64,000 nt of DNA from Nannocystis bainbridge (GTDB lineage Bacteria > Myxococcota_A > Polyangia > Nannocystales > Nannocystaceae): assembly GCF_028368995.1 (NCBI RefSeq), contig NZ_JAQNDL010000005.1:448001-512000 (forward strand), written 5' to 3'. This document shows positions 5,163-33,890 of this stretch, piece by piece. The notes beneath the pieces are model-generated. The model saw nothing but the letters and a program-made list of their open reading frames with translations, ran no database searches and was not told the origin of the DNA. The first letter of the stretch is position 1, and every line of letters starts with the position of its first letter. The translations under genes and the position numbers were made by a program.

Positions 5163-5648
5163 CTAATTTCTCGCTTTCGAAATATCGCGCACCCGCACAT
5201 CGGACCGCTCGAAGGCCGACTCGCCGGTGATGACCGCAATCGCCGCCGGCCGCTCGGCGAGCAGCTTCCACGACTCGCCCTTGCTGCTGCTGAACAGCCC
5301 GTACACCGCGATCGCCTCCGGAGCTTTGGCGAACGTCAGCGGGATCACCGATTCCTGGCCGGGCAGCACCACCAGCGTCTGGACCACCGTCTCGTCGGGC
5401 TGGACCACCAGGCGGGCCACCGTCGAGTAATCATCCTCGACGAAGCTCTTGCGCGTCGCCGTGCGCACGACCACCTGCAGGGGTCGGCCGTTGTTGCTGT
5501 TCTTCGCGGCGCGAACCGTCAGCGTCACCGTCGGTTCCTTCGGCGTCTTCGGCGGCGCCTCGGCCTTGCAGCCCGGGAGCGCCGACGCGAGCGCCACCAG
5601 CATCGCGGCCAGCAGCGATCGGCGGGTCATGGTCGTTCGCGCCATCAT
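5163..5648 (-). CDS. T6SS outer-membrane lipoprotein, IglE/TssJ-like
   Basis: Lipobox ALPGC; start overlaps the tssM stop; NNGRPLQVVVR...FVEDDYSTVARLV...YGLF...ESWKLL resembles IglE/TssJ. Confidence 0.75.
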   Translation of the reverse strand: MMARTTMTRRSLLAAMLVALASALPGCKAEAPPKTPKEPTVTLTVRAAKNSNNGRPLQVVVRTATRKSFVEDDYSTVARLVVQPDETVVQTLVVLPGQESVIPLTFAKAPEAIAVYGLFSSSKGESWKLLAERPAAIAVITGESAFERSDVRVRDISKARN

Positions 5649-8600
5649 CCGCCGCAGTCCCTGACGGCGAAGGGGAGCCAGGGGTCGCTCTCGAGGACCA
5701 CGCTGACATCGCGGGTCGTCGGCGCCACCTCGCCGACGGTCACGCGCCAGCGCACGGGCAGCCGCTTGCCGGCGCTGGCCTGGGTCTGGCTGCATCGCGT
5801 CGCGCGGCCGATGGCCGCCGCCGTCAGCGTGAGGCGCCGCTCGGAGGTCCGCTCGTTCTCGCCGCGATCGAGCAGCCGATAGAAGCTGAACGGACCGTCC
5901 TCCTCGATCGTGTAGGTACGCGGGCCCGCGCCCGGGACCGCGGAGCGCATCTCCAGCGAGACCACCGAGCTGCCCTGATTCCACCACTGGAGCGCCAGGG
6001 TCTGCGGCTCCGGCCGCTGATTGAAGCCATACACCGCCGCGCCGCCGCTGCGCACGTAAGACATCGCGGCGAATCGCTCCTCGTGCGGCTCCTTGGGCAG
6101 CAGCTTCGGCTTCAGCACCACCTTGAGCGGCACGGGATTGCCGTCGGCGTCCCACAGCTTCCGGCTCGTCCGCTCGAGGTCGCTCGTCATCGCCAGCATG
6201 CCGGTCGGTCCCTGCAGATCGGCGAGCATCGTGCGCTGGCCCGAATCGAGCTTCGTCGCCGGCGCGAGCAGCCGGTCGAAGGCCGCCCAGAACGAGCCGC
6301 GCTCCTTCCCCTGGGCCCGCACCACCGCCTCGAGCTCGGCGACGTCGACGTCGACCTCGGCCGAGGGGCTGAAGGGATAGGCCTGGAGGAGCGGGCGCAC
6401 CAGCGGCCGGACCTCGTCCTTCCAGGCCCGCCGCACCTCGGATTCGATGTCGTCGATCCCGAGCGCGCGCACCTCCTGCACCGGCGCGAGGAAGGGCGCG
6501 TGCCAATCGTCGCTCAGCCCGGCGCCGTTCAACCATTCGGCGACCTGCTCCGCGGGGTCGTCCCCGGGGCTCTGCAGCGCGTGCAGGGTGAAGAGCCCCA
6601 GCGGCGTGAGACGCTCGTGGAGCTGGAGCCCGTCGCGCGCCGCGGGAGCGCCGCCCAGGGCGGGCTCCAGCCCGGCCAGGAGCTTTTGATAGGGACCGAG
6701 CCCGGGGTTCGTGCCGTCCTTGGTGGCGAGCAGCGCGACGAGCGGCTCGAACACCTCGAGGGCCGTGGCGAGCGGCTGGACATACGGGTCGTCCTCACTC
6801 AGCTCGAGCGACGCGTTTGCGGTGACCACCGAGAGGTACTCGACGAACCATCCCGACGGCCGCGAGAACCCCTGCAGGACGAAGGGCAGCGTCATCTCGG
6901 TCGCCGGGTCCAGCTCCATGCTCCAATAGTAATCGAGCAGCTCGCGCTTGTAGGTGACCGCATACCGCTGCGTGCACTCCCGGATCGCGCGATCGAGGCG
7001 CTGCGCCTCGGCGATCGTCATGCCGAGGGCCGCCAGCGCGGCGCCCTCGGGCTCGCGGATCGCCGGGCCGAGACGCTCGGCCGCGAACTCCAGCACGGGC
7101 TCGATCCGCTGCTGATACGCGGCCTTGGTGTAGGTCCCGCGGATGAATCGGCTCGGCCCGCCGCCGTAGCCGCTGACGATGCCGACACGGGGCCGCTCCT
7201 CGGTCTCGTCGAAGAACGCGGTCCCATCGTTCATCCGCGACTCCGGGATGTCCGCCAGGACCTGCTGAATGAGCACTTTGGACATGCTGCGCTTGAACAG
7301 GGCCGCCAGCGCCGAACCCTTCAATTCCACCGTCTTGCCGTCGAACGCGATCGTGAAATCACGGGGGATCGCAGGCGGCCTTCGCTCGAGCGCGGAGACC
7401 AGCGTCCCGAGCCCCCAGCCCTCCGTCCGGCTCGCGTCCGTGGCACCTCCCTCGCGCGGCAGGTGCGTCCGCAGGGCCTCCGCGAGCGCCGTCAGGGTCG
7501 CGTACTGCTCCTCGGTCCACAGGTCGATCGGCTCGTCCACCAACAACCGGCGGAACCGACCCTCGAGCAGATCGGGGCGGTCGAAGGCCTTCCGGATCGC
7601 CGCCAGCACCTTGTAATCGGACGGGCTGAGCAGGGCGGGGATCTTCGCCAGCGCCTCGGCCTCCTCCAGATCGATCGTCGGTTGGCCGACCTTCTCCTGC
7701 AGCGCCACGAGGTACCGCGACCACTCGCGCCCGACGTTGTCATACTTCTCGCGCGCCGCGGGATCCGCGGGCTCCGGCGGCTCCGGCGGCTTGACGCTCC
7801 CCATCTCCGGAGAGCTCGCCTCGACGTAGTGCTTGATGACCTCGCCCGAGAGACCGAGCGCGTGCTCCCACAGCGAGCGATGCTCGCGGATGATCGCCCC
7901 GAGCTCGTTGGCGTGACTCGAGTAGATCAGCGCCATGAGGTAGTGCAGCTGCAGTCGATCGCTGCAGGGGATCTTCGGGTAGAGGTAGCCCTTGCGGAAC
8001 GTCTCCTCGAACCGCTCCTCGATGTCGCGCTTGCGGGCGACGAAGGTGCGCGCGAACCACAGCCGCTCCGATTGCTTGACGGCTTGGAGCGCCGCGGCCT
8101 CTGCTTTGGGCGGTTCCATCTTCGCCCCCGCGCCCTGGTGTTTGCAAACCTCCGGATCCTTCACAGGGCCGACGTCGCGCTCGAACTTGTCGATCCGCGC
8201 CTCGGCCTCCACGATCGACGCCCGGTGCCAGCCCATGAGCGACGCGATCAACGCGGCGCCACCCACCCCGACGGCCAGCGCGCCTCGCAGCCCGCGCTGG
8301 TGATGGCGGCCGAGGCTCGTCGAGATCAGATCGCGGGAGATCTGGAATGGCAGGCCCACGTGGGTGCGGGGCGCCAGCGAGCCGAGGTAGAGGCCGCCGA
8401 CGCTCAGCGGCATCGCGTGGGGCTCGTGCCGCCCCTGCAGCGTCTCCAGGAGCGGCCGCAGGCCGTCCAGCAGCGCCCGCAACGACTTGTAGAAGCGGAC
8501 CAGGCGGTCGAACTCCTCGCCGCTGCGGCTCGTCAGCGCGTACGCCAGGTGCCCGTCGAAGGTGGCGACCAGGCGCGCGGCCTGGTTCGGCTCGGTGAGG

Positions 8601-9316
8601 GACTCGAGCTCGAGAGGTTCGTGATCGGGCCCGACCACCGCGGCGAACGCCTCGAAGCCGTCGACCTGATCGAGGTGGCTGAGCAGCACGCGGACCTCGA
8701 GCGACGCCCGGCATCGCCGCGGGAACAGGCCGATCTTGCCGCGGACGAGCTGCGCCAGCTCGTGCAGCGCCGCCGGCGGCGTGGTCAGCAGCGAGCGCGC
8801 GTCGAGCACGAGGACCACCGTCGCGCTCGGGCCCATGTGCCACCACATGCGCCATAGGGCCTGGCGGGCGCCGCGGCTGACGTCGCGCAACAGCGGCGCC
8901 GACAGCTCGTGGACGACGACGTCGGGGCCGAGGTAGAGCTGCAACGCGGCGTCGTGGGCGACGCTACCGCGGAACTGATTGGCCTGACCGCGCCAGTCGA
9001 CGTGGCTCGAGATCGCGTGCGTCTTGCCGACCCCCGCGGCGCCCATCACGACGACCGTCGGAAAGTGGAGCGCGCGGGTCGGGATCCGGCGGTAGAACGG
9101 GCGCCACAGCCCGGCCAGGCGCGACGCGAGCAGCGGCCCGGCCGGCCTCGGCGGCGCCGCGGCCGCTCGCTTGCGCCGCCACACGACGACCGCCCACACC
9201 ACGGCCGCCAGGACTACTACCAGTAACAGGCCGAGGAGCGCCCACTGCCACCAGGAGAACATCTCCGGCGCCATGGCGCTCGCTCCTTCGGCTTCGTCCG
9301 TCGTCATCGTCAACAT
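5645..9316 (-). CDS. tssM: T6SS membrane complex TssM/IcmF (PdpB-like)
   Basis: 1223 aa; N-terminal TM, Walker A GAAGVGKT, LSHLDQVDGFEAF, second TM, large periplasmic region with YPF and GPFSFYRLLD; start codon uncertain. Confidence 0.85.
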   Translation of the reverse strand: MLTMTTDEAEGASAMAPEMFSWWQWALLGLLLVVVLAAVVWAVVVWRRKRAAAAPPRPAGPLLASRLAGLWRPFYRRIPTRALHFPTVVVMGAAGVGKTHAISSHVDWRGQANQFRGSVAHDAALQLYLGPDVVVHELSAPLLRDVSRGARQALWRMWWHMGPSATVVLVLDARSLLTTPPAALHELAQLVRGKIGLFPRRCRASLEVRVLLSHLDQVDGFEAFAAVVGPDHEPLELESLTEPNQAARLVATFDGHLAYALTSRSGEEFDRLVRFYKSLRALLDGLRPLLETLQGRHEPHAMPLSVGGLYLGSLAPRTHVGLPFQISRDLISTSLGRHHQRGLRGALAVGVGGAALIASLMGWHRASIVEAEARIDKFERDVGPVKDPEVCKHQGAGAKMEPPKAEAAALQAVKQSERLWFARTFVARKRDIEERFEETFRKGYLYPKIPCSDRLQLHYLMALIYSSHANELGAIIREHRSLWEHALGLSGEVIKHYVEASSPEMGSVKPPEPPEPADPAAREKYDNVGREWSRYLVALQEKVGQPTIDLEEAEALAKIPALLSPSDYKVLAAIRKAFDRPDLLEGRFRRLLVDEPIDLWTEEQYATLTALAEALRTHLPREGGATDASRTEGWGLGTLVSALERRPPAIPRDFTIAFDGKTVELKGSALAALFKRSMSKVLIQQVLADIPESRMNDGTAFFDETEERPRVGIVSGYGGGPSRFIRGTYTKAAYQQRIEPVLEFAAERLGPAIREPEGAALAALGMTIAEAQRLDRAIRECTQRYAVTYKRELLDYYWSMELDPATEMTLPFVLQGFSRPSGWFVEYLSVVTANASLELSEDDPYVQPLATALEVFEPLVALLATKDGTNPGLGPYQKLLAGLEPALGGAPAARDGLQLHERLTPLGLFTLHALQSPGDDPAEQVAEWLNGAGLSDDWHAPFLAPVQEVRALGIDDIESEVRRAWKDEVRPLVRPLLQAYPFSPSAEVDVDVAELEAVVRAQGKERGSFWAAFDRLLAPATKLDSGQRTMLADLQGPTGMLAMTSDLERTSRKLWDADGNPVPLKVVLKPKLLPKEPHEERFAAMSYVRSGGAAVYGFNQRPEPQTLALQWWNQGSSVVSLEMRSAVPGAGPRTYTIEEDGPFSFYRLLDRGENERTSERRLTLTAAAIGRATRCSQTQASAGKRLPVRWRVTVGEVAPTTRDVSVVLESDPWLPFAVRDCGG

Positions 9317-9328
9317 CGTCGCGCCTCG

Positions 9329-9553
9329 TCATCTGCCGACAGCGGGCCAACCTCGGGTCCGCAGGCGGGCCTCGAGCAGATCCTCGAGCAGGTCGAGCCG
9401 CGGCCCGACATCGACCGGAGCGTCGCCCGTCGCCGCGAGCATTCGCCGCAGCTCGTCCAGCGGTCCGGCCAGCGCAGAGAACGCCTCTCCATCGGCCGGG
9501 AACAACCGCTCGACCTCTCGCACGAGCGCCTCCAGGGCCGCGAGCAGGGTCAC
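9329..9553 (-). CDS. Small helical hypothetical protein (74 aa) between dotU and tssM
   Basis: GTG start overlaps the dotU TGA (GTGA), with GGGAGG upstream; MTLLAALEALVREVERLFP...LDLLEDLLEARL is amphipathic and fills the gap. Confidence 0.65.
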   Translation of the reverse strand: MTLLAALEALVREVERLFPADGEAFSALAGPLDELRRMLAATGDAPVDVGPRLDLLEDLLEARLRTRGWPAVGR

Positions 9554-10305
9554 AACATCCCTCCCACCGGATGATTCGAGAGCGCGGTCAGCAGCCACGC
9601 GCTCGCCACGACCACCAGCAGCCCCAGCGCATAATATCGCCAGGTGGGCCACGGCTGCGGCAACTCCCCGGGCTCCGGATCGAGCGGCTCCGATACGGCC
9701 GAAGGATGGGGGATGCGCTCGGCGAGCCGCTGCTTGTAGAAGTGAATCTGCCCCGAGTCGGTGGCGAACATGCCCACGAAGCCGTGGCTCAGACAATAAT
9801 AGTAGACCTCGAGCACCAGCGCCGGCGTCCGCGGGTCGTGGAGCGCGTCGTCGATCGCGGTGAAGAACTCGCTGCCGCCGGTGGTCGTGCGCGTGAACTC
9901 CGTCTGCATCAGCGGCCAGCTGAGCCGCAGGTAGTCGGGGAGCAGACGCATGATCCGCTCGTCGAAATGGACCAACAGGGCCCGGCGGATCCGCTCGAAT
10001 CCTGGCTCGCCGGCGAACGCGGCCCACAGCGTCTCCAGGCGCCTGCGAACCGCCTCGCGGAGGCCCCCGAGGCGCTCGTGGTCGCGCTCGTCGAGCCCGT
10101 CGGTCCGCATGGGAGCCGGCACCTCGATGGCGCCCGTCCCGGCGCGAACGTCTCGCCACGCGGTCTCGCGCAGCGGCGTCGCCACGCGCGGCGGCGCCGT
10201 CGTGAGCGGACGGCGGCCAGGGAGGTCCGCGGCCTCGGCCGCCACGAGGGCGTCGATCTCCGCGGAGAGATCGAGGAGCACCGTCCACAGCGCCTGTCGC
10301 GTCAT
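9550..10305 (-). CDS. tssL: T6SS TssL/DotU
   Basis: FDERI...WPLMQTEF...GGSEFF...LEVYYYCLSHGFVG motif and a C-terminal TM helix. Confidence 0.9.
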   Translation of the reverse strand: MTRQALWTVLLDLSAEIDALVAAEAADLPGRRPLTTAPPRVATPLRETAWRDVRAGTGAIEVPAPMRTDGLDERDHERLGGLREAVRRRLETLWAAFAGEPGFERIRRALLVHFDERIMRLLPDYLRLSWPLMQTEFTRTTTGGSEFFTAIDDALHDPRTPALVLEVYYYCLSHGFVGMFATDSGQIHFYKQRLAERIPHPSAVSEPLDPEPGELPQPWPTWRYYALGLLVVVASAWLLTALSNHPVGGML

Positions 10306-11927
10306 CGGCTCGGCCTCGCCTTCTCGCCGCGTCGGCGCGCGCCGGCCTCATGCGTGCGGATCTCGGCCGGGTTGTTGCTCCACGCGTTGATGAGCGCCCC
10401 CAGACAATGCAAGTAGTCCGCGACCAGCCCACGGCGCTCCGCCGCGACGTCGCCGAGGGTCACGTCGTACACGTGCTGCACCCCGCCGCGATTGCCCGCC
10501 GGTTCATCGCGGACATCGACGTGCCGGATCTCGTCCGCGACATCGCCGTGGGGGCCGTGTGCATCGGCGCCGAGCGTCGTCATCAGCATGACGATGTCGC
10601 TGCGGCTCAGGACCCGCTTGGCGCGGCGCGACATCACGTGCAGCATCGCCGTCGAATCGCGCCACAGCGGGCTGCGGCGGTGCGGCGTCATCCGGCCCAG
10701 CACGCGGAACCCGACGCCCTCGAAGTGGCGGTGCTGCAGCGAGGCATCGAGCGCGCCGACGGCCACGGCGTCGAAGCTCGGCTGGAACCAGCGGGCCCGC
10801 ACCAGCACGCTGCGCGGGTGCATCAGGGCGTCGGGCAGCCGCAGCAGCAGGTGCGCCGCGTCCGGTTCGCCGGTGTGGTCGAGCTCCCAGCTCTCCGCCC
10901 CGCCGGCCAGGTGGCCGGGCAGCAGCGGATCGAGGCCGTCGCGGGTCTCCTGCTGGACCTCGACGATCGAGTGGAACGCGACCTCGTGGTCGACGCGCCA
11001 CGGGCGGATCGCGTGGCGGGAGCGCGTCCCGTCGGCCTTGATCGGCTCGGCCAGCTCGGTGAACAGGTTCTCGATCGGCACCACGAACAGGCGGAACATC
11101 TCCGAATTGACGACCTGTCCTTCGGGCCATGCGTCGAAATCGAGGCACAGCCACGCCTGCCGCCACGGCCGCGACGGCCGCGCGAGATCGACGGCGAGCG
11201 TCAGATCCTTGGCCGGGAAGTGGAAGAACTCGCGGATCCGCGCGACCGCGCTGCGCGTCTCGCCAGGCGGCGCGGCCTCGTCGGACTCGCCTGGCGCGCC
11301 GAGCCAGAACCGGCACTCGGCCCCGGGCTCGGTCGGCGACGGCGGCTCGCCGTACACGACCGCGACCCGGCTCAGGTGGAGGCGCAACCACTCGAAGAAT
11401 TCGCGCGACACCGGGTAGTCGCCGAGGTGATCGATCTGGAGGGACAGCGGCTCGGGCACGCCGGCGACCGGGACCCGCGAGCGCAGCCGGAGCAGCACCC
11501 GGTGGCCTGAGCCGCCGAGCAATTGCAGCTCGGCGCGGTCGAGGTCGAGCGGGCGGATCGTCACGTCGCGCATGGTCGAGAAGAACCCCACCTCGCCGTC
11601 GGCGGTCTCGAGGCGGACCCGGCTCCCGCGGGGAATGTGGGCAGGCTCGGCCAGGCGCGGGCTCGGCAGCCCGCGGAGCAGCACGCGGGCCGGCTGCGGC
11701 AGCGCGAACTCGTCGAGCAGCCCGTGCGTGAGCCGGGCGATCGCCCCGCGCAGCTCCGCCGCCGCCGCCTCGTGCGTGCGCGCGGCGAAGAACGCCAGCG
11801 ACTCCATCAAGCGGCGGACATCGGGGTCCTCGGGCTGGATGAAGCCCTCCCCGCCGCGGCGGCGGAGCAGGAACTCGTCGAGGGCCTCCAGCTCGCCGAG
11901 AAAGTCGCGATAAAAGCCCTGGTTCAC
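10302..11927 (-). CDS. tssF: T6SS baseplate TssF (IglH-like)
   Basis: EDPDVRRLMESLAFFAAR, REFFHFP and VPIENLF...EPI are TssF motifs; operon position fits. Confidence 0.85.
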   Translation of the reverse strand: MNQGFYRDFLGELEALDEFLLRRRGGEGFIQPEDPDVRRLMESLAFFAARTHEAAAAELRGAIARLTHGLLDEFALPQPARVLLRGLPSPRLAEPAHIPRGSRVRLETADGEVGFFSTMRDVTIRPLDLDRAELQLLGGSGHRVLLRLRSRVPVAGVPEPLSLQIDHLGDYPVSREFFEWLRLHLSRVAVVYGEPPSPTEPGAECRFWLGAPGESDEAAPPGETRSAVARIREFFHFPAKDLTLAVDLARPSRPWRQAWLCLDFDAWPEGQVVNSEMFRLFVVPIENLFTELAEPIKADGTRSRHAIRPWRVDHEVAFHSIVEVQQETRDGLDPLLPGHLAGGAESWELDHTGEPDAAHLLLRLPDALMHPRSVLVRARWFQPSFDAVAVGALDASLQHRHFEGVGFRVLGRMTPHRRSPLWRDSTAMLHVMSRRAKRVLSRSDIVMLMTTLGADAHGPHGDVADEIRHVDVRDEPAGNRGGVQHVYDVTLGDVAAERRGLVADYLHCLGALINAWSNNPAEIRTHEAGARRRGEKARPSR

Positions 11928-11930
11928 GCC

Positions 11931-12485
11931 TCAGCCCGCCTTGATCAGCGACCCGCCGATCGTCGTCATGCTGCCCTTGAGCGCCGCCATGCCCGAGGAC
12001 TCCAGCGACAGCTGCGCGTCGGCCTTGACCGCCACCTGCATGCCCGCGAGCTCCGCCTGCGTGTTGCCCTTGAGCTTGATCGACTGCGTGCCCGACGCCT
12101 CCACCGTGGCGCCCTCGATCTTGGCCGCGCTCTGGGCCTTGATCGCGACGTTGGCCCCGGAGACCTTGAAGTCGTTCTGGGCCTGCTGCACCACGTCGGC
12201 GCCCGACTTCACGGTCGTATTGCCCTCCTTGGACTCATAGGTGGCCGTCTTCGTGGCCGTGCAGGTGATCGACTCGCGCGCGACCACCTCGAATTGCTTG
12301 CACGAGATCGTCACCTTCTCGGTCGTCTGCGTCAGGGACGTCTCCTCTTGCTCGCCTTTGACCTTCGCCACCAGCGTCGTCCCGTTCATGGTGATCGTCT
12401 GCACGATCTTCCCCTCGGCGTCTTCGACGGTGATCGTCACGCCGCGCTCCTTGCTCATCTCCAGGGTGCAGATCAGCTTCGTCAT
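11931..12485 (-). CDS. vgrG: Short needle-only VgrG (gp5 beta-helix), Francisella-type
   Basis: 184 aa of alternating beta-strand repeats ending ...AALKGSMTTIGGSLIKAG; no gp27 domains; follows a hub-like gene. Confidence 0.7.
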   Translation of the reverse strand: MTKLICTLEMSKERGVTITVEDAEGKIVQTITMNGTTLVAKVKGEQEETSLTQTTEKVTISCKQFEVVARESITCTATKTATYESKEGNTTVKSGADVVQQAQNDFKVSGANVAIKAQSAAKIEGATVEASGTQSIKLKGNTQAELAGMQVAVKADAQLSLESSGMAALKGSMTTIGGSLIKAG

Positions 12486-12491
12486 CGCGCG

Positions 12492-14138
12492 TTATCCCTT
12501 CATCTCCTCCACGCGCAGCACCAGGGTGCCCTCGCTGATGCGGATGAGCCCCGTGTCCTTGTCGCTCGTGCGCGCGACGTTGAGGACCGGCTTGTCGTCC
12601 TCGTAGACGTGGTTGATCGACGTGCTGCTCTTCGGCGACTTGCCGAGCAGGATGTGCTCGCCCTGAACGTCCATCGACAGCGCCGCGCCCTCCCGCCATT
12701 CGAGCAATCGGGCCACCCGGGCGTGATGCAGGTCGAGCGCCAGCAGCACGCGCTCGCCCCGGTACGCCGGCACGTAGACGTTGCCCGACCCGAGGTACGG
12801 GATGAACGGCGCCGTCACCTTCTGCTGGCTCCACGCCGGCACCTCGACCGTGTACTCGTCGAGCGAGCTGTCGTCGTTGCGGTACACCTGGTAGGTCTTG
12901 TCGCTGTCCTCGCCCTTCTCGGACACGACCTTGCCCTCGACATAGCCGGGGTAACGCGGTCGCCGATACTCGGGGTGACAGGCCCGCGTGTCCTCGCCGT
13001 CGACGAGGCGCGCGCGCAGCGAGACCTCGTATTCGGTGCTGGCGAGCTGGAGGTCGTGATCGAGGGACCCGTCGGAAGCGAGCGCGCGCAGCGAGACCTG
13101 CCGCACCCGCCAGATCTTGCCGACCAGCGCGCTGGTCTTGTTCCACCGGTTCGCCGCCGCCATCTGCACGCGATCGCCGGGCAGCAGCCGGATCACCGGC
13201 ATGCGGCCGAACGTCAGCTCCACCTCCAGCTTCGGCAGCCGCAGGCGCTGCTTCTCGAGCGCGACCCGATCGTCGACTTCCTGCGAGATCGAGGTGTGCA
13301 TCAGATGGTCGTGCCGGATCGCGCTCTCCGCGTAGGTCTGTGCGATCGCCTCCGTCCGCGGCCCGTTCGCGTAGGTGTTGCAGACCTCGACCGCGTGGGC
13401 CGGCGTCGGCGGCACGACCATCTCCACCCCGGCGATGTCGTCGCCGAACAGCCCGCGAGGCTCCCCGGCGGCCGGCCATTCGCTCAGCAAATCGAGCTCG
13501 CCGGTGACGTAGTCGTAGGTGAAGAGGCCGCCCCGGTGATCGGCGTACCAGATCAGAAAATCATAGAAGCTGGCCCCGTGTTCGACCGGCAGGTGGAGGA
13601 AGATCAATGGCCGCTCCTGCGCGAGCTCGGCCCAGCCGAATTTCACCTTGATCTTGTCCCCGATCTGGGCCCGGATCACGTCCTCGAGCTTTTGGTGAGT
13701 GTGCAGCCGGCACGGGAAATGCTGCGTCCACAACGCCCGCGCCGGGTCGGTGAACGCGATGCGATAGCGACGAACCAGCAGCGGCCTGTCGGGCAGGCGC
13801 CAGCCCGGCAGCTCGACCACCGAGCGGCGGGTCACCAGCCCCGAGAGCACCAGCGCCTCCGGGCTCTCGGCCGATTCCGCCTGGTCGTACACCACCGCCA
13901 GCGCGACGCGGACATCGAGGGGCTCCTGCGAGAGGAAGCCCTCCCGCAGCTCGTCGGTGAACCCCCCGCCGTGCGCGGCGTCGTCCTGCAGCACGAACTC
14001 GAGCTCCCCCGAGAAGCCGAACGGCTCGAGCTCGAGCTCGACCCGCTTGACCGCGCCGCCGGCGATCTCGTGCTCCTTCCCCGCGATCTTCAGGGTGACG
14101 CCGATCGCCAGTCGCTCGGTGAACGAACCCTCGCGCAT
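12492..14138 (-). CDS. PdpA-like spike hub (gp27-like plus OB fold, no needle)
   Basis: ATG 14138 overlaps the tssE stop; 548 aa; ASFYDFLIWY, YVEGKVVSEKG and YVPAYRGERVLLAL resemble VgrG hub/OB-fold segments. Confidence 0.65.
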   Translation of the reverse strand: MREGSFTERLAIGVTLKIAGKEHEIAGGAVKRVELELEPFGFSGELEFVLQDDAAHGGGFTDELREGFLSQEPLDVRVALAVVYDQAESAESPEALVLSGLVTRRSVVELPGWRLPDRPLLVRRYRIAFTDPARALWTQHFPCRLHTHQKLEDVIRAQIGDKIKVKFGWAELAQERPLIFLHLPVEHGASFYDFLIWYADHRGGLFTYDYVTGELDLLSEWPAAGEPRGLFGDDIAGVEMVVPPTPAHAVEVCNTYANGPRTEAIAQTYAESAIRHDHLMHTSISQEVDDRVALEKQRLRLPKLEVELTFGRMPVIRLLPGDRVQMAAANRWNKTSALVGKIWRVRQVSLRALASDGSLDHDLQLASTEYEVSLRARLVDGEDTRACHPEYRRPRYPGYVEGKVVSEKGEDSDKTYQVYRNDDSSLDEYTVEVPAWSQQKVTAPFIPYLGSGNVYVPAYRGERVLLALDLHHARVARLLEWREGAALSMDVQGEHILLGKSPKSSTSINHVYEDDKPVLNVARTSDKDTGLIRISEGTLVLRVEEMKG

Positions 14139-14521
14139 CACGACTCCCCCACGGTGACGTGGACCTGCCGCGTCGTCGTGTCGATATCGATCCAGAGCAC
14201 CAGCGCCTCGCCGCGGACCTGTCCGCGGACCTCGTAGCGGATCCCGCGATAGCCGTACCCGCCGAGCAGCCGCACCACCGGCGAGCCGAGCCGCGGCTCG
14301 TAGCGCTCGATCGCCGCCTCGAGCTCGTTCCGCAGCAGGATGACGGCCTCGTGGGTCGTCGGCGCGGCCTCGTAATCTCCCAGCCCGAACTCCGCGATCA
14401 CGCTGCCGCAGCCCTTGCGGGTGTTGAGCAGGTGCTCGAGGTTCCGAACGATCACCGCCGGGGTCGCCTCCGCGGGCCCCTGCGCGAGCCGGTGGATGAA
14501 TGAGCCGAACCGACCAGCCAT
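14138..14521 (-). CDS. tssE: T6SS baseplate TssE (gp25-like)
   Basis: IVRNLEHLLNTRKG...FGLGD...AIERYEPRL gp25 signature. Confidence 0.9.
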   Translation of the reverse strand: MAGRFGSFIHRLAQGPAEATPAVIVRNLEHLLNTRKGCGSVIAEFGLGDYEAAPTTHEAVILLRNELEAAIERYEPRLGSPVVRLLGGYGYRGIRYEVRGQVRGEALVLWIDIDTTTRQVHVTVGES

Positions 14522-14524
14522 CGC

Positions 14525-15793
14525 TCACCCCCACACCAGGACGGCCTGGATCCCTTCGAGCGCGTGCCAGGCCGGGAAGCAGAGATCGCGGTCGCGGACG
14601 GCCTGGGCCCACTCCGGGTCGCCCTCGATCTGCAGCTTGTAGAAGGTCGCGTCGTGACCGTAGACGTACGCGAACGAGCTCGACTGGAAGACCGCCAGCG
14701 AGACCCCCGCCAGCGCCCGGGTATGGACCTCCTCGATCCGCCGCGGGCTCGCCAGCTTGACCCCGGCGAAGTCGACCGGCTTGCCAGAGCTCGACTTCAG
14801 GACCAGGTAGACCTCGCGGGACCGGCAGAGATCGTCGGGGAACGGACCCGCGACGAACCAGCTGGCCCGCCGCTCGAAGCCGAGTCGCTTCGCGCTCAGC
14901 GAGCTCGAGCTCAGGCAAGACTCGGTCCGCAGCCGCAGCTCCTCGAAGCAGCCCGCGAGGTCGCCGTGGCGATACCGCAATTGCAGGACGTCGTGCTGGT
15001 CGTCCTCGAGGATCGCCGCCTCCATGTAGAACTCGCGCAATGCGCTGAATAGCAGATACGGGTGCAGCGAGACCTTCTGCTGCGATTCGCCCGCGCCGAG
15101 CCCGTGGTCCGCGAGCACGGCGAGCGCCCGGTGGGCCGCCGAGCGTACGCGACGGAGCTCGGCGCCCTGCTCCGAGCCGAGGAACGAGTCGCGGATCCTG
15201 CGGCTGAGCTGGGCCTCGACCGCGTGCACCGCCCGGACGATCGCCTCGAGCGTGTCGCGCAGCAGCGGCGCCACCTCGACGCCGACTCGCAGCAGCGGCG
15301 GCGCGTAGCGCTCCAGCGACCAGCAGGCGTCGCGGCGCACCAGCCCGAGCAGCTTGACCGACTCGCGCGCGTCGTCCTGGCGAGCCGCGAGCGACAGCTC
15401 GGCGCGATAGATCACCCGGGTGACGCGCCGCGGGTCGTCGCGGTAGCCCTTGAGGTCCGTCGCGTCGGTGACTTCATGACCGATATGGAGATAGATCGCG
15501 GCCACGTTCTCGGCGACGTCGTCGAGGCTGATATTGCCGATCACGGCGTTGCCGGGCACGTCGATCAGCAGACCCGAGGCGAACACGTAGGTCAGCCGCT
15601 CGACGCGCACTGCGCCGGCGGCGAGCAGCGCCTCGTCCACGGCCAGGCGAGCGAGCCCGTGCGCCGGCAGACCCGAGAGGCCGGCGCCGACCCGGTCGTG
15701 AGCGAGCAGCGCCTCCTGCAGCGCGACGAACTGCTCCGGGAGCAGGACCTGCCCCATGCGCCACTCCGGGAGAGCTAATCGGACGCCGCTCAT
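14525..15793 (-). CDS. tssK: T6SS baseplate TssK (IglD-like)
   Basis: WRMGQVLLPEQF, SGLLIDVPGNA, LHPYLLF, YRHGDLAGCF and VKLASP motifs. Confidence 0.85.
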   Translation of the reverse strand: MSGVRLALPEWRMGQVLLPEQFVALQEALLAHDRVGAGLSGLPAHGLARLAVDEALLAAGAVRVERLTYVFASGLLIDVPGNAVIGNISLDDVAENVAAIYLHIGHEVTDATDLKGYRDDPRRVTRVIYRAELSLAARQDDARESVKLLGLVRRDACWSLERYAPPLLRVGVEVAPLLRDTLEAIVRAVHAVEAQLSRRIRDSFLGSEQGAELRRVRSAAHRALAVLADHGLGAGESQQKVSLHPYLLFSALREFYMEAAILEDDQHDVLQLRYRHGDLAGCFEELRLRTESCLSSSSLSAKRLGFERRASWFVAGPFPDDLCRSREVYLVLKSSSGKPVDFAGVKLASPRRIEEVHTRALAGVSLAVFQSSSFAYVYGHDATFYKLQIEGDPEWAQAVRDRDLCFPAWHALEGIQAVLVWG

Positions 15794-15797
15794 CGCG

Positions 15798-16373
15798 TCA
15801 CTTCTCGACCTTGAGACCCCACGCCTTGACGATCTTGACCGAGAACGAGGTGGCGACCGTGATCGTCTGAGCCAACGGCTGCGGCTTGACGCCGATCTGG
15901 AACGCGTAGTTCTCGGGGGACTGCACCTCGGTCGAGGCGTCGTCGGAGGTGTCGATGTTCAGGTCGCCGCCTCGCTTCTCCAGCAGCCCGTCGAGCGCCT
16001 TGTCGGTCGGCAGCAGGCACTTGAAGTACTTCTTCTCGAGCGGGTCGTACTCGTAGATGCTGAAGTTGTAGGAGACATCGACCTTGGACAGGTCCTTGTA
16101 GGCGAGCTGCTTGATCTGCTGCTTGTTGAACACCGAGATCTGGCCGGAGAAGTAGAGCCCGTCGGTGACCCCGAGCTCCCACAACACCCCGCTGAGGACG
16201 GTGACGACCGCGAGATCGGTCTCGGGCGCCATGGGGTCCTTGCAGGTCTGGTCGGCCTTGAGCGTGACGTCGCCGATCTTGAGCTCGGTCAGGAATCCGA
16301 CCGGGGTCTGGACGTCCTTCTTGAAGTTGTAACCCTGGTAAATGTCGCAGTGCTTCTGGAATGTGGCAGGCAT
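15798..16373 (-). CDS. Candidate tube protein (IglC/Hcp positional equivalent)
   Basis: 191-aa beta-rich protein between the sheath gene and tssK (iglB-iglC-iglD order); strong GGAG RBS; lacks classic Hcp motifs. Confidence 0.6.
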   Translation of the reverse strand: MPATFQKHCDIYQGYNFKKDVQTPVGFLTELKIGDVTLKADQTCKDPMAPETDLAVVTVLSGVLWELGVTDGLYFSGQISVFNKQQIKQLAYKDLSKVDVSYNFSIYEYDPLEKKYFKCLLPTDKALDGLLEKRGGDLNIDTSDDASTEVQSPENYAFQIGVKPQPLAQTITVATSFSVKIVKAWGLKVEK

Positions 16374-16397
16374 CGCTTGTCTCCTCGCTGTTTGCTA

Positions 16398-18851
16398 TCA
16401 GGCCCCGCCGAGCGCCGCTTCCAGCCGCAGCTCGACGTCCATGCCCTGGAACTGGATGTGCGGCAGCACCGCGACCTTGCAGCTGTACCAGCCGAACGGC
16501 CCCGGCTTCGGCTCGACGCTGACCGACATGGCCTTGAACGGGTAGTAGAGCAGCGTCAAATCGTCCGGGTTGACCGCCGTCGTCACGTACTCGACCAGCC
16601 AGGCCTCGAGCATCGACTGGATGTATGGCGCGTCGGCCGTCGAGCCGATGTAATCCCGCACCATCCGCTTGACGTAGTGGGCGATGCGCGTGATCGACAG
16701 CGTATACGCCAGGTTGCAGATCAGGTCGGCGTTCTTGGTGTCGAGGTCGTCCTCGAACTCGATCGCCCGCTTGACCGCGCGCGCGCTGAAGAACGTCACG
16801 TCCGCCGTGCCCTTGCAATGGACCAGAGGGATGAAGCCGGCGTTGGCCAGCTGCAGCTCGCGATAGTCCGGGATCGCCACCTCGACCGGCGGCTGCAGCT
16901 CCTCCTGCCCGTGGTGGAGCACCATGTGCACCGGCAGGCCCTTGATCAGCCCGCCGCCGAGCGGCCCCGCGATGTGCTGACACCAACCCGACGCCTGGAA
17001 CGAGCGCACCATGTTGCGGGCGAACAGCACCGCCGCGTTGCCCCACAAGTAGTCGCCCGGCCCGCCGATCTTCTCCTCGAAATCGACCGCCTGCTGCTTG
17101 CCGGCCTGGCGCACGTAGGGCGCGCGCAGCATGTAGCGCGGCATGGTCAGGCCGATGTAGGCCGCCCCGTGCGTCTCGCGGAAGGCCGCCCACCGCCCGT
17201 ACTGCGGCAGCGCCATCAGCTCCTCGATGTCCGGCTTGCGATCGAGCTCCTCCCAGGTCTCGCTGGAGAAGAAGCGCGGGCTGACCGCCGCGACGAACGG
17301 GCAGTGCGCCGCGGCGCTGATCTTCGACACTGTCTGCAGCCAGTCGATGTCCTCGTCGCTGTTGTCGAACTCGTAGAGCCCGATCATCACGCCGATCGGC
17401 CGCCCGCCGTAGCGATCGTACTCGTCGATGTAGACCTTGCGGAACAGCGCGCTGTTGAGGATGTAGCTCGAGTGGTCCTCGAAGTCCGCGCGCAGCACCT
17501 CCTTGTCCGCGTCGAGGAAATCGATGATGACCTCGTTCGAGTTCACCTCGCGGCACAGATCGTCGAGCGACCGCCAGCTCGTCTCGAGCGCGCGCAGGCT
17601 CGGGCTCTGGACCACCCCGGCCAGCCGCTTCTGCACCAGCCCGTCGAGCTCGTGCAGCAGCGTGTCGATGGCGATCATCATGGTGCGGATCGAGTCGACC
17701 CGGCGCCCCTCGAGGAACGGGTCGATGTTGACCAGCAGCACCGCCAGGATGTTGGCGAAGCGGTCCGCGAGGGTGAAGCTCGTGTCGCGGTCGTGGAACG
17801 CCAGGTTGGCGCTGCCCGGTCGTTCGACCAGCGCGCGCTGCTTGTTCTCGGACGGGTTCATGCCCGCGCTGCTGATCAGCCGCTCGAGCAGCGCCTTGGC
17901 GTCGGGCTCGGGCTCGTCCGGCGCCGCATCCACGGGGGCCGCAGCGGCGTCCGGGCGGGCCTCTGCCACCAGCAGCGGATACCTCCGGCGGAAGTACCCG
18001 CGCAGCTGCCCGAACGCCGACTTCTCGCCCTCGGCGACCGGCACCTCGCGCAGCTGCACGAGCTCGGCCTTGAGCGCCTCCCGCAGCTCCGGGAAGCTCG
18101 AGATGTGATTGCGCGCCTCGAGCACCAGCCGATGCAGCAGCACGATCCGCCGGATCTCCGGCACGCTCATCGCCACGTGCAACGGCTTGAAGTCGTTGAT
18201 CGAGCGCAGCGGGATCGTCAGATCGACCGGCACCTTCTCGGCGCTGACCTGGCTCTTGAGCCCGCCCGTCAGCTCCGTCGCGGCGCTGTCGTTGGGGCCG
18301 ACCGTGACCTCGAATTCCCCGTGGACATCGCCCGTGAGCCCGATCTCGGCGCCCGGCGGCGGCTCGACCTTGCCGTGAACCGAGAGCTTCACCGGGGTGC
18401 CACCATCGGGGATCGCCAGCTCTCCGTTCGCGAACGGCAGCATCGCCTCTCCGCTGATCTCGACCTCGCCGGCGAAGCTCCCGAGCCGGTTGGCCCGGAA
18501 GTCGCCCTTCACCGTGGCCGTGCCGCGGATCTTGACCTTGGCCTCCGTCGCCCCGGCGGCGGGCTCACCGACCAATGTTCCGGTGACCGACCCGGCGAGC
18601 GCCCCGGCCAGCACCTCGCGCAGCTCGGCGTCTTCGATCGGCGCCGTCACCTTCATCTCGTCCATGAAGCTGGCCAGCTTCATGCCCGGCAAGATCGAGT
18701 GGATCGGACGCTCCCCAAGCAGGCGCCGGTTGGCCCCCGTGAAGTCTCCGAGCACCAAGAAACGCATCGGCAACTTGGCCTTCTTCGGTTTGCCGTCGAT
18801 CTTGGTCCGATAGCTGATGTTGAGACGCGAACGAGGGACTGGCTTACTCAT
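16398..18851 (-). CDS. tssBC: Fused contractile sheath TssB-TssC (IglA-IglB-like), 817 aa
   Basis: N-terminal PRSRLNISYRTKIDG...LPMRFLVLGD and SINDFKP...VPEIR (IglA/TssB); C-terminal LETSWRSL, EYDRYGGRP, YLWGNAA and GWYSCKVAVLPHIQFQGM (IglB/TssC); no internal stop. Confidence 0.9.
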   Translation of the reverse strand: MSKPVPRSRLNISYRTKIDGKPKKAKLPMRFLVLGDFTGANRRLLGERPIHSILPGMKLASFMDEMKVTAPIEDAELREVLAGALAGSVTGTLVGEPAAGATEAKVKIRGTATVKGDFRANRLGSFAGEVEISGEAMLPFANGELAIPDGGTPVKLSVHGKVEPPPGAEIGLTGDVHGEFEVTVGPNDSAATELTGGLKSQVSAEKVPVDLTIPLRSINDFKPLHVAMSVPEIRRIVLLHRLVLEARNHISSFPELREALKAELVQLREVPVAEGEKSAFGQLRGYFRRRYPLLVAEARPDAAAAPVDAAPDEPEPDAKALLERLISSAGMNPSENKQRALVERPGSANLAFHDRDTSFTLADRFANILAVLLVNIDPFLEGRRVDSIRTMMIAIDTLLHELDGLVQKRLAGVVQSPSLRALETSWRSLDDLCREVNSNEVIIDFLDADKEVLRADFEDHSSYILNSALFRKVYIDEYDRYGGRPIGVMIGLYEFDNSDEDIDWLQTVSKISAAAHCPFVAAVSPRFFSSETWEELDRKPDIEELMALPQYGRWAAFRETHGAAYIGLTMPRYMLRAPYVRQAGKQQAVDFEEKIGGPGDYLWGNAAVLFARNMVRSFQASGWCQHIAGPLGGGLIKGLPVHMVLHHGQEELQPPVEVAIPDYRELQLANAGFIPLVHCKGTADVTFFSARAVKRAIEFEDDLDTKNADLICNLAYTLSITRIAHYVKRMVRDYIGSTADAPYIQSMLEAWLVEYVTTAVNPDDLTLLYYPFKAMSVSVEPKPGPFGWYSCKVAVLPHIQFQGMDVELRLEAALGGA

Positions 18852-21644: not shown

Positions 21645-22034
21645 ATGGCCATCGCAGTGTGCATGGGAGCCACCATGATGTGCAGCTTCGGCGTCGCGCC
21701 GGCGAGCCTCGTCGTCCTGCCGACCGGCTCGATGGTGACGCCCGCCGTCCCCTCCGCCAACATCTCCGCCTTCGCCCCGGTCGCCAACGTCCCCCCGTTC
21801 GGCGCCTGCACCTCGATGGCCAACCCCACCGTCGCCGCCGCGACCGCGGCCGCCCTCGGCGTGCTCACGCCGATGCCCTGCGTGCCCATGACCACCTCGC
21901 CGTGGATCCCCGGCACGCCGACCACAATCAACGGGGCCATGCCTGCCGTCGACGCCAGCTGCAAGCTCATGTGCAACTGGGGCGGCTGCATCTCCGTCCT
22001 CAACCCCGGTCAGACGACCCTGATGGTCCAATGA
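21645..22034 (+). CDS. PAAR-like DUF4280 protein (IglG-like spike tip)
   Basis: GATMMCSFG...PFGAC...PCVP...W.PG...LMCNWGGCI....GQ is the DUF4280 pattern with four conserved Cys; GGAGGAG RBS. Confidence 0.9.
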   Translation: MAIAVCMGATMMCSFGVAPASLVVLPTGSMVTPAVPSANISAFAPVANVPPFGACTSMANPTVAAATAAALGVLTPMPCVPMTTSPWIPGTPTTINGAMPAVDASCKLMCNWGGCISVLNPGQTTLMVQ

Positions 22035-23242
22035 TCGAGCCGCTGCCCTCCCCCGGCGAATTGCTGCGCGGCCGGCACTCCGGCGCCGCGACCGTCCGCA
22101 GCGACGCGAACGGCGTCGTCCACAAGCTGCTCGACCTGGCCGACCGCGGCAATTACCTCGAGGCCGCCGCGCAAGCCGCCGAGCTGCTGCAGGGCGCCTC
22201 CGACGACGTGCGCCTCGTCGCCGTCTACTTGGCCGGCCTGTTCGTCGAGCGCGGCGTCCCGGCGCTGCCCGAGCTCCTCGAGGTGGTGGAGAAACTGGGC
22301 GACGAGCCCTCGCGTCCCCTCGCCTCCGCCCTCGAGTGGCTGTTCCGCGCCGTCGTCGAGCGCGTCGCCTTTCACACCACGCAACGCGACGCCACCTGGG
22401 AGTCCTGGCTCCGTGAACTCGACCCCGCCCAGGTCGACGCGCTCGCTACCCGCTGCGATGCCCTCGCCGCCCGCTTCGCCACGGGAGCCGCCGCGCTGCA
22501 GAAGCTCGCGCGCTGGGCCCGCGAGAAGCTGATGCCGGCGGTCGCCCGCGCCAGGAAGAGAGCGCCCCCCGAGCCCGCTCCGGCCGCCCTGCAACCCGCC
22601 CTCGATCCCGAGCCCGAGCGAGGCCCTGCCTGGGACGCCGCCGAGCCCGAGCCCGCAGACGACGAATCCGAGGACGACGAGCACGACGACGCGCTCGAGC
22701 ACGACGAGCACGACGACGAGCACGAGCACGACGACGACGATCCGAGACGCGAGCACGACGAGCGAACCGTGGATCTCGACGAACCTCGCTTCGAGCGAAG
22801 GCGCGGCGAGCGGCCCGTGGCGTCGGACGAAGCTCGCTTCGCGCGGCGACGCGGCGAGCGAGCCATGGAGCTCGACGAGCACAGCCGCGAGCATCGACGC
22901 GGCGAGCGAATCACGGAGTTCGACGAGGCCCGGCGTCCCGAGCGAGCCGTCGTGCTCGACTCACCCGCCCTGCTCGAGCTGCGCGACAAGCTGCACGCGT
23001 TCGAGGTCGTCCTGGCCCGCGGCGAGCTCGACAAGGCCGCCGTGATCGCCCACGACGTCCAGTCGATCCTCGGCAACTTCGATCCCGTCTTCTACTTGCC
23101 CGCGCTGTTCGGCCGCTACTCCGAGCTCCTCCACCACGCCTTCCCCGAGCTCGAAGCGCGCTGGAGCGACACCGCCGACCCGCGGTGGCGGATCCTCGTC
23201 CAGTTCTACCGCACCAACCTCGCCGGCTTCGTCGGCGAGTGA
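22031..23242 (+). CDS. IglI/TssA-like T6SS protein with an acidic repeat-rich linker
   Basis: ATGA overlap with the DUF4280 gene; DVRLVAVYL N-terminal domain; C-terminal KLHAFEVVL...KAAVIAHDV..IL.NFDPVFYLPALF. Confidence 0.65.
   Translation: MIEPLPSPGELLRGRHSGAATVRSDANGVVHKLLDLADRGNYLEAAAQAAELLQGASDDVRLVAVYLAGLFVERGVPALPELLEVVEKLGDEPSRPLASALEWLFRAVVERVAFHTTQRDATWESWLRELDPAQVDALATRCDALAARFATGAAALQKLARWAREKLMPAVARARKRAPPEPAPAALQPALDPEPERGPAWDAAEPEPADDESEDDEHDDALEHDEHDDEHEHDDDDPRREHDERTVDLDEPRFERRRGERPVASDEARFARRRGERAMELDEHSREHRRGERITEFDEARRPERAVVLDSPALLELRDKLHAFEVVLARGELDKAAVIAHDVQSILGNFDPVFYLPALFGRYSELLHHAFPELEARWSDTADPRWRILVQFYRTNLAGFVGE
22660..22950 (+). repeat. Asp/Glu/His tract and ~48-bp degenerate coding repeats inside the IglI-like gene
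   Basis: DDEHDDALEHDEHDDEHEHDDDD followed by about four ER....DE.R..RRRG units. Confidence 0.7.
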
Positions 23243-31713: not shown

Positions 31714-31843
31714 CCGGTCAGGCTATCATCGGCGCCGACGAGGAGGCAATCCATCCCCGAAACTCCGCCCCGATCGGACATATCGACGACCATCGCGCAT
31801 ACCCTGTCCAAAGCCGCCTGACCCTGGGTTATCTTCGCTGTGG

Positions 31844-32839
31844 GTGTTTACCCTCACCAACCGGACGTCCTGCCAGGTCCACACGCAACTGCTGCTCGAC
31901 GCCAATGGCGAAGAGCGCCTGCTGGTCCTCGCCAAGGCGAGCTTCCGCATCGAGGCCGGGAAGCTCGTGAGCGCCGACGCCGAGCTGGTGCTCGCCGATC
32001 GCTATCGCGGGGACCCCACCGCCTCGAGCCTCGTCGCGGCCGGCGAGGTCGTGCTCGCCAAGCCGCTCCCGGATCTGCTCCTGTCGGGCAACGCCTACCC
32101 CTCCGAGCCCGGCGGCACCATGGGACACGTCAGCTTTCGCGTCGGTGCCTGGTCCAAGGATGCGCTGGTCTTCGGCGACCGCACATGGACGCGCGGCGTC
32201 ACCGGGCTCCGTCCTGCTGCTCCGCAGCCGTTCGAGACGATGCCGCTGATCTACGAGCGCGCGTTCGGTGGCGCCGACCTCGACGCACGGCCGCCGCTGG
32301 AGTGCGCCGAGAACCCGGTCGGCGTCGGTCTCGTCGGTTGCCAGGCCGGAGCGCCGTTGCCCAACCTCGAACACCCGCATCACCGCCTCGAGGCGCCCGG
32401 CGATCGCCCACCGCCGCGAGCCTTCGGCCCGATCGCCCCGCACTGGCAGCCGCGGCGGAGCCTCCACGGCACCTTCGATGCGGCGTGGCAGCGCACGCGT
32501 CTGCCGCTGCCCCCGCTCGATGGCGATCCGCGCGCGGCCCAGGTCGCGCCGCCCGATCAGGTCTACCCGACGATGTTGCGGGGCGACGAGGAGGTCGAGA
32601 TCCGCGGAGCCCAGCCAGGCGGCGCGTGGTTGACGTTTCGCCTGCCTTCGATGCACGTGCAGGTGATCGTCCACGACGGAAAACACCGGCGCGCCTTGCC
32701 GACCGCCCTCGACACCCTGCACGTCGACGCCGAGGCGCGCCGCCTCGACCTGACGTGGCGCGCGAGTTTGTCGGTGCACGAGCGATTCGACGAGCTCGCC
32801 TGGGTGCTTGTCGACTCCGCGGGAGGACCGAGTGTCTGA
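31844..32839 (+). CDS. DUF2169 T6SS adaptor
   Basis: LAKASF, KP.PDLLLSGNAY, VFGDRTW, PFETMPLIYERAFGG, ENPVGVG, FGPIAPHWQPR, DTLHVD...TWR; GTG start inferred. Confidence 0.9.
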   Translation: MFTLTNRTSCQVHTQLLLDANGEERLLVLAKASFRIEAGKLVSADAELVLADRYRGDPTASSLVAAGEVVLAKPLPDLLLSGNAYPSEPGGTMGHVSFRVGAWSKDALVFGDRTWTRGVTGLRPAAPQPFETMPLIYERAFGGADLDARPPLECAENPVGVGLVGCQAGAPLPNLEHPHHRLEAPGDRPPPRAFGPIAPHWQPRRSLHGTFDAAWQRTRLPLPPLDGDPRAAQVAPPDQVYPTMLRGDEEVEIRGAQPGGAWLTFRLPSMHVQVIVHDGKHRRALPTALDTLHVDAEARRLDLTWRASLSVHERFDELAWVLVDSAGGPSV

Positions 32840-33881: not shown

Positions 33882-33890
33882 GAACCACGC

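Follow-up and report, generated by a model that had tools for sequence, protein, structure and literature searches.

A natural TssB-TssC sheath fusion in a type VI secretion gene cluster of the soil myxobacterium Nannocystis bainbridge

The sheaths of type VI secretion systems (T6SS) are described as heterodimers of TssB and TssC, unlike those of phages and extracellular contractile injection systems (eCIS), which are built from a single protein, TssB being the counterpart of the N-terminal part and TssC of the C-terminal part of the phage sheath protein gp18 (PMC5924787). Here we describe a gene, tssBC, in which both components are encoded in one polypeptide. The gene is located in a stretch of 64,000 nucleotides from the soil myxobacterium Nannocystis bainbridge (contig NZ_JAQNDL010000005.1, positions 448,001 to 512,000), hereafter called the window, to which all coordinates refer unless another contig or locus is named. 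The fusion, its conservation, the anatomy of its junction, its repeated origin and its operon context are established by our data. We further consider it probable that tssBC encodes a working single-chain sheath protomer of a T6SS without ClpV, that its TssC part belongs to an IglB-related branch, and that the two genes were fused by the loss of a stop codon. An initial annotation, made from the sequence alone, had proposed a natural TssB-TssC fusion at this site, and the proposal held: the gene is full-length and in frame, it is conserved among its homologs, and its cluster contains no other sheath gene. The annotation mentioned neither the insertion of 135 residues in TssB nor the frequency of such fusions in databases.

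The gene is read from the minus strand (16398-18851), where translation gave 817 amino acids and a terminal stop without interruption, as the annotation had stated. The frame is open further upstream, to an ATG at 18983 that would yield 861 amino acids, but the start was assigned to 18851 because the homologs begin at the methionine of an MSKPxPRSRLN motif, some of them with stops a few codons upstream; a GGGAAG motif is located upstream of the ATG at 18851. The match to the Pfam family T6SS_VipA (PF05591), with 52.7 bits (cut-off 24), is interrupted by an insertion and falls on residues ~5-69 (profile 4-70) and ~201-262 (profile 78-139). The TssC part was recognized by VipB (PF05943, 323.5 bits, residues 397-693), by VipB_2 (PF18945, 112.7 bits, residues 705-814, profile 3-112 of 112) and by the NCBIfam equivalog for TssC (TIGR03355, 412 bits versus a cut-off of 271.5, residues 389-814), matches which bear out the claim that this part is complete. 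The G+C content at third codon positions (GC3) is 0.92 across the whole open reading frame (ORF). Genes of the tssBC type are named only "sheath large subunit" in the databases.

According to the structural accounts in PMC5807055 and PMC5924787, the N-terminal strand of TssB and the C-terminal strand of TssC form the handshake between protomers, and the C-terminal helix of TssB and the N-terminal helices of TssC form the outer domain 3. Residues 1-79 of the fused protein (18615-18851) comprise the TssB N-terminal arm with the handshake strand and the first core strand and helix, as delimited by the VipA match and the predicted local distance difference test (pLDDT) values of an AlphaFold2 model. 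They are followed by a beta-meander insertion of six long strands (residues 80-214, 18210-18614; DSSP on the model) and by the TssB C-terminal helices that belong to domain 3 of the outer layer (residues 215-295, 17967-18209; VipA match and helices 223-290). The linker rich in Ala, Pro and Asp that the initial annotation had quoted was located at residues 296-317 (17901-17966), where it also contains Glu and is delimited by low pLDDT, by its variability and by the anatomy of the split relatives. The TssC N-terminal region (residues 318-388, 17688-17900) is marked by a helix at residues 316-328 with the motif LLERLI, seen in the model and in the sequence. The TssC main domain, PF05943, occupies residues 389-693 (16773-17687; Pfam, NCBIfam and Foldseek), and the gpW/gp25-like handshake domain with the C-terminal arm, PF18945, residues 694-817 (16401-16772; Pfam). 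One polypeptide holds both handshake arms, and at its C-terminal residues there is no or hardly any variation across 44 fused proteins.

These 44 proteins, which carry all three Pfam domains, were found among the best 120 of the 808 matches (E <=0.001) to a sequence search with the fused protein; 74 others were TssC-only (491-551 aa) and two were odd. Among the relatives from which the same fusion was recovered are isolates that bear the names Nannocystis sp. SCPEA4 and Sorangium sp. So ce321. The clade to which tssBC belongs contains seven fused proteins, and the six others, all from other assemblies, are 81-87% identical to it, so the fused frame has outlasted a protein divergence of 13-19%. 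The junction was also inspected for a stop codon or frameshift in assembled Logan contigs of soil metagenomes from two studies, rather than in raw reads, over positions 17400-18400, and the contigs that cross it contain neither. One contig of 1124 nt spans the whole interval without gap or stop and with six substitutions. For none of the four metagenome runs, one of which (X3) covers only short bits of this interval, was an indel listed in it, and none of the substitutions creates a stop. Synonymous changes account for 5 of 6 substitutions in run X1, 5 of 5 in X2 and 12 of 21 in X4, and the amino acid changes in X4 are either conservative or fall in linker residues 306-315, where the non-synonymous differences cluster. 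This pattern of substitutions suggests that tssBC is under purifying selection.

A scan of one genome per species identified nine collinear loci, seven of which are split, one fused (L035) and one with a broken tssB (L038). The TssB proteins of the split loci are 306-349 aa long and contain the same insertion, and the low-complexity tail at their end varies in length. In six of the split loci, those whose junction sequence was read, a stop codon comes after this tail, then a spacer of 27-35 nt that contains GAGGA or AAGGAG, then the start codon of tssC, ATG or GTG. A single in-frame stop parts tssB from tssC in two of the seven (L033 and L034), so that one base change would fuse the genes. Locus L036 differs from L033 by a deletion of 1 nt in the spacer, and the relative frame of the two genes is therefore fluid. 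Judged from these alignments, the linker of the fused protein probably consists of the former TssB tail, the intergenic spacer and the start region of tssC. The split relatives have LLDKLI or LLKKLI where the fused protein has LLERLI.

Two of these loci call for a separate remark. In L038 (6001-6663), from a single metagenome-assembled genome (MAG), the long tssB leaves the frame after about residue 207, giving a product of 220 aa, either because the assembly is faulty or because the gene is a pseudogene. A Haliangium MAG carries, on two contigs (L040 and L041), near-identical copies of a split locus; their TssB tails consist of (Gly-Ser)n and differ in length (TssB of 345 versus 349 aa).

The history of the fusion was examined in a maximum likelihood tree of the C-terminal 470 residues, with 120 rows (44 fused and 76 split), from which P0049 and P0060 were left out and whose outgroup includes the two other TssC proteins of the genome. 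The fused or split state changes nine times on this tree, at least seven of the changes being forced by starred branches, and a single fused clade was rejected in the approximately unbiased (AU) test (delta lnL 893, p-AU 0.0004). The seven-protein fused clade with tssBC (100*) is placed within a Nannocystaceae-level set of 29 rows, 18 of which are split (99*). Two other clades, one of 11 rows with proteins of ~1100-1315 aa and one of 10 rows with proteins of ~880-925 aa, are wholly fused, from which we conclude that the fused state persists along long branches. Outside the myxobacterial clade, the TssC groups are split. Because of the nine state changes and the rejection of one fused clade, the fusion is most readily interpreted as secondary and recurrent rather than retained from a phage, and it would have arisen by loss of the stop codon between neighboring genes.

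The annotation had left it at either a reversion to, or a retention of, the phage-like architecture. The alternative resolves toward secondary fusion, in that the phage topology appears to have been restored, but not by descent; retention could not be upheld, as the nearest relatives are split pairs and the fused forms are scattered among split ones. We also considered the possibility that the single chain is nevertheless the ancestral, phage-like state and that the split relatives are secondary fissions. Deep fused branches at the base of the myxobacterial clade (P0074, P0063/P0069 and the 11-row clade of ~1100-aa proteins), where the branching order is not settled, would fit this view, and parsimony counts changes, not their direction. 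However, the TssC proteins outside the clade are split, including the canonical pair of the same genome, an IglB-like protein of 509 aa and neighbors of 498-528 aa, and the fused groups nest among the 18 split rows of the 29-row set. Moreover, the junction has the composition of a TssB tail followed by a former spacer, and at this place the split relatives still have the ribosome-binding site and start codon. For a fission, a stop, a ribosome-binding site and a start codon would all have to appear at once; for a fusion, a single base change is enough, as in L033 and L034. We therefore regard an ancestral single chain as quite unlikely.

Fusions of this kind are not limited to the best matches. 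An exhaustive search of 1.84 billion representatives gave 4987 matches, and among the top 150 of these (representatives at 50% identity) 58 of the 138 new proteins have a TssB-like part followed by a TssC-like part, in forms of ~570-690 aa as well as in giants with the pair at the C-terminal end. The canonical-length fusions (~640-690 aa) fall in the canonical half of the TssC tree, and P0184, P0201, P0215 and P0261 are among them, although others exist. Four canonical-length fusions group together (support 82), among them one assigned by name to a Candidatus Solibacter MAG and one that stands for a cluster of six proteins, each 649 aa long. Of the ten canonical-length fusions whose clusters were inspected, eight are singletons, one has two members and one is this cluster of six. 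When canonical TssB was searched for among longer proteins, 11 matches were obtained with one full TssB-TssC fusion, a count that understates the frequency. We conclude that fusion of the TssB and TssC genes is widespread in sequence data. In our literature searches we found no description of natural TssB-TssC fusions, only of TssB tagged with green fluorescent protein, while supplementary tables of T6SS loci might list some; matches to the term "fused sheath" concern unrelated botany.

The most probable account of how the fusion came about and why it would be tolerated takes as its starting point a long TssB with the insertion and a disordered tail rich in Pro, Ala, Gly and Ser, ending 27-35 nt before tssC. 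If the stop was lost with the spacer in frame, tail and spacer would become a flexible tether of 22 residues running from the C-terminal helices of TssB to the N-terminal helix of TssC. Such a tether would join two ends that both lie in domain 3 and would leave the N-terminal strand of TssB and the C-terminal strand of TssC untouched. Since the polymerizing arms are left free, we infer that the fused chain can form the handshake mesh and contract, and by analogy it should polymerize and contract like the split pair. The fusion may then be nearly neutral and easily made by loss of a single stop codon, and its repeated origin would be explained by this ease and tolerance. It would fix the subunit ratio at 1:1 and secondarily restore the chain topology of phage sheaths. 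For recycling, a ClpB-like ATPase may be used, or the ClpV of the other cluster of the genome acting on the now internal LLERLI helix, or no ATPase at all.

Two separate products might still come from a fused ORF, if translation also began internally at the old tssC start or if the linker, which as a predicted disordered stretch rich in Pro and Ala could be accessible to proteases, were cleaved. The former tssC start in the window shows no ATG, GTG or TTG and no Shine-Dalgarno-like motif, and the first in-frame methionine (residue 331) follows the N-terminal helix of TssC and is conserved as an internal residue in the split TssC proteins. As for cleavage, the linker is variable among the fused relatives, with in-frame indels, and measures 24-62 aa between the fused clades; no conserved cleavage site is apparent in these linkers, which differ in sequence as well as in length. 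Two products from tssBC are on these grounds also quite improbable, and a single chain remains the preferred interpretation.

The AlphaFold2 model of the 817-aa chain, built on an alignment of the 44 fused proteins with tssBC as the query, has a mean pLDDT of 81.8 and a predicted template modeling (TM) score of 0.85. Residues 1-20 have pLDDT <50 and residues 801-817 are likewise of low confidence in this monomer, which is what would be expected of arms that become ordered only in the polymer. The first core elements of TssB (residues 29-79), the helices at residues 223-290 of its C-terminal part, and the helix at 316-328 (..ALLERLISS..) that opens the TssC part are modeled, and linker residues 302-310 again have pLDDT <50. 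In the chain-by-chain matching with Foldseek, which concerns the TssC part only, this part matched nine solved T6SS sheath chains with TM-scores (normalized to the target) of 0.79-0.91 and E-values of 2.6e-28 to 8.1e-23.

The strands of the insertion cover residues 80-93, 103-116, 125-141, 152-163, 174-184 and 197-214 (DSSP). The canonical TssB of the same genome aligns to residues 6-55 and 189-253 of the fused protein, its residues 19-64 matching the N-terminal part; because it aligns on both flanks, the insertion is seen to expand the beta2/beta3 hairpin of canonical TssB, to which its first and last strands correspond. Folded alone, the 135 residues reached a pLDDT of 80.8. No convincing structural relative was found: no match had E <=0.001 in the PDB (best E 0.048, Foldseek), the best VIA-align Z in the wide search was 5.6, and the whole-model count contained no chain with Z of 5 or more. 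No clear known fold was assigned, the resemblances being generic ones to beta-meanders and barrels, and neither Foldseek nor VIA-align matched the insertion to a phage sheath domain. Across the 44 fused proteins, tssBC included, the insertion varies from 132 to 617 aa; it is mostly 132-206 aa but reaches 370-617 aa in a clade of ~1077-1315-aa proteins (P0067-P0083). The domain is expandable and presumably lies on the surface of the sheath. The fused clade P0012-P0018 has a second, variable low-complexity insert rich in Ala, Pro, Gly and Thr directly after the N-terminal helix of TssC, which exceeds 100 aa in P0016.

The fused gene heads an operon on the minus strand with the order tssBC, orf191, tssK, tssE, a 548-aa ORF, a 184-aa ORF, tssF and tssL. 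The spacing between these genes is -4 to 24 nt, and tssM follows 233 nt after tssL. The identified components are tssK (14525-15793; TIGR03353, 275.5 bits), tssE (14138-14521; TIGR03357, 58 bits, cut-off 53.2), tssF (10302-11927; PF05947, E 2.3e-29), tssL or dotU (9550-10305; PF09850, E 5.4e-18) and the icmF-like tssM (5645-9316; PF14331 and PF06744). The 548-aa ORF (12492-14138) has no Pfam match, and its sole PDB match is a weak one to Francisella PdpA (6u9e, E 0.023, 36 residues); the 184-aa ORF (11931-12485) has no family. Directly downstream of tssBC, after 24 nt, orf191 (15798-16373, 191 aa) occupies the place where hcp would be expected. This conserved gene gave no Pfam, NCBIfam or PDB sequence match. 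A stop-to-stop ORF of 192-198 aa is found in its position in six of the nine related loci, and a seventh shows a comparable C-terminal stretch. Its neighbors in the protein atlas are phage proteins, the nearest named ones being tail tube proteins (0.85-0.88), which is a lead only; from position and atlas neighbors we annotate it as a putative tube protein.

On the plus strand of the window there is a divergent DUF4280 PAAR-like gene (21645-22034; PF14107, E 3e-30) and a vgrG gene (36426-38720; Phage_GPD, Gp5_trimer_C and Phage_base_V), along with weak TssA-like and weak TssG-like genes, three DUF2169 genes and a PAAR-like toxin gene. The ORF at 22100-23242 combines a weak TssA-like match (ImpA_N, E 0.0046) with a long stretch rich in His, Asp and Glu and repeated units containing RRRGER. 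The region at 31385-44080 resembles an effector-loading region, with the three DUF2169 genes, a Tox-PAAR-like gene, vgrG and several ORFs without family.

Searches with PF05591 and PF05943 identified tssBC as the only TssB or TssC on its contig (C5) and revealed no second, split tssB/tssC pair belonging to this cluster in the genome. A canonical set with tssB (177 aa), tssC (497 aa) and clpV is located on contig C2 (1012882-1018442; L001, L004 and L007), and the clpV next to this pair is the only one in the genome that exceeds the cut-off; no ClpV family match was obtained among the scanned ORFs of the window. A third TssC locus (C2, 1080129-1081391; L002) has a 1122-aa frame that was considered as a second fusion and rejected on reading, its N-terminal part looking like an out-of-frame overlap with the upstream gene. 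Among five related genomes, a ClpV above the cut-off is located far from the locus in one (G041) and on a contig that was not mapped to the locus in another (G043); in the three others, of unknown completeness, none was found. In a sample of 40 other genomes, ten of them from the same genus, there was no close homolog, only matches to the TssC part with 27-37% identity, and all ten genomes of the genus have a canonical TssC. The cluster is accessory and patchily distributed.

Given the canonical tssB/tssC/clpV set elsewhere in the genome, tssBC could be thought of as an accessory single-chain paralog that does not polymerize rather than as a structural sheath. Its C-terminal handshake domain is complete, however, its TssB N-terminal arm is present, its operon has no other sheath gene, and ordinary split pairs are its collinear orthologs, all of which makes such a paralog very improbable. 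That the fusion is an artefact of assembly or sequencing, with a missed stop or indel, is hardly credible: the region is GC-rich and of low complexity and the related MAG locus L038 has a broken tssB, but the six fused relatives come from other assemblies, contigs from two metagenome studies cross the junction without gap or stop, and GC3 is 0.92 throughout.

Several observations weigh against our interpretation of tssBC as a working sheath protomer produced by secondary fusion. The TssB part scores 61 bits, below the NCBIfam equivalog cut-off of 97.25, and TssJ, TssG and TssA are without a clear match, with weak hits only in the window. The cluster (5645-18851) is found in none of the ten other genomes sampled from the genus, and being accessory, it could be idle in this strain. 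The trees come from quick searches under LG+G4; they do not settle the branching order at the base of the myxobacterial clade, where several deep branches are fused and the ancestor could have been in either state.

That single-chain T6SS sheaths occur naturally and have persisted through long divergence suggests that the split into two proteins is not needed for assembly. Fused and split orthologs that differ by as little as one stop codon offer a ready set for testing the purpose of the split, candidates for which are the subunit ratio, the order of assembly and the access of the disassembly ATPase to the N-terminus of TssC. The large and variable insertion in TssB points to decoration of the sheath surface, which is unstudied in T6SS. 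A more far-reaching hypothesis, unlikely but conceivable, is that the Myxococcota hold a distinct, IglB-related and ClpV-independent branch of T6SS with a phage-like sheath, often a single chain and with an expandable outer domain of 135 to >600 residues, in which the tether is not neutral. If so, the tether would bury the free TssC N-terminus that is used by unfoldases, implying a different mode of recycling or single-shot use, and lineages would switch between the fused and split modes by one base change.

The closest known systems are the split T6SS orthologs in Nannocystaceae bacterium ST9, Enhygromyxa salina SWB007 and Haliangium MAGs (L033, L037 and L039-L041), which are collinear with tssBC over residues 1-816 with 56-74% identity. 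Like tssBC, they have a long TssB with insertion and low-complexity tail and the orf191 position downstream, and their TssC proteins are 508-516 aa long. They differ from it in that tssB and tssC are set apart by a stop codon, a spacer of 27-35 nt that contains a ribosome-binding site, and a start codon.

The best sequence match of the TssC part among solved sheaths is Francisella IglA/IglB (3J9O), with 341 bits versus <=282 for the others, although a canonical representative scores nearly as high (335 versus 342 bits). An IglB-like representative (P0152, 509 aa, 609 bits to IglB) is placed in the same half of the TssC tree (100*) as the clade of tssBC, but not as its sister, which gives some basis to the "IglA/IglB motifs" of the initial annotation. 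Further likenesses to the Francisella T6SS-ii, a type whose sheath is disassembled by ClpB, are the cluster without clpV and the nearby DUF4280 PAAR-like gene. On the other hand, IglA and IglB are separate proteins, and the insertion is absent from IglA, whose PDB chain has 184 aa. TssE, TssF and TssG of Francisella are listed as unidentified in PMC5924787, whereas TssK, TssE, TssF, TssL and TssM of the window are recognized by ordinary T6SS models. In the same source, IglB is described as lacking the N-terminal ClpV-binding helix, which in VipB carries LLDEIM; the fused protein keeps a helix with LLERLI at residues 316-328 that resembles it. As to the proteins specific to the Francisella island, among them the tube protein IglC and PdpA, orf191 has no PDB match and the PdpA match reaches only E 0.023. 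We have not filed the system under T6SS-ii because its baseplate genes match the standard models and an LLDEIM-like helix is present. The clade would place IglB-related sheaths outside Francisella, whereas a 2026 review confines T6SS-ii to that genus (PMC13584744).

The canonical T6SS-i sheaths (VipA/VipB, 3J9G/5MXN; HsiB1/HsiC1, 5N8N; M. xanthus, 5URW/5URX) share with tssBC the TssC fold, the protein families and the handshake elements, but are built from two chains, their TssB measuring ~125-177 aa and lacking the insertion. The TssC part of tssBC is 34% identical to the canonical TssC of its own genome, whose cluster encodes ClpV. The sheaths of phages, R-pyocins and eCIS (T4 gp18, 3J9Q, PVC/AFP) are likewise one polypeptide with arms at both ends, and gp18 also has extra outer domains inserted in its core, as described in PMC5807055. 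However, these sheaths are only distant fold matches (8-13% identity, TM-score to the target of 0.3-0.54), and, in contrast to them, the single chain of Nannocystis bainbridge was most probably derived from a split T6SS pair.

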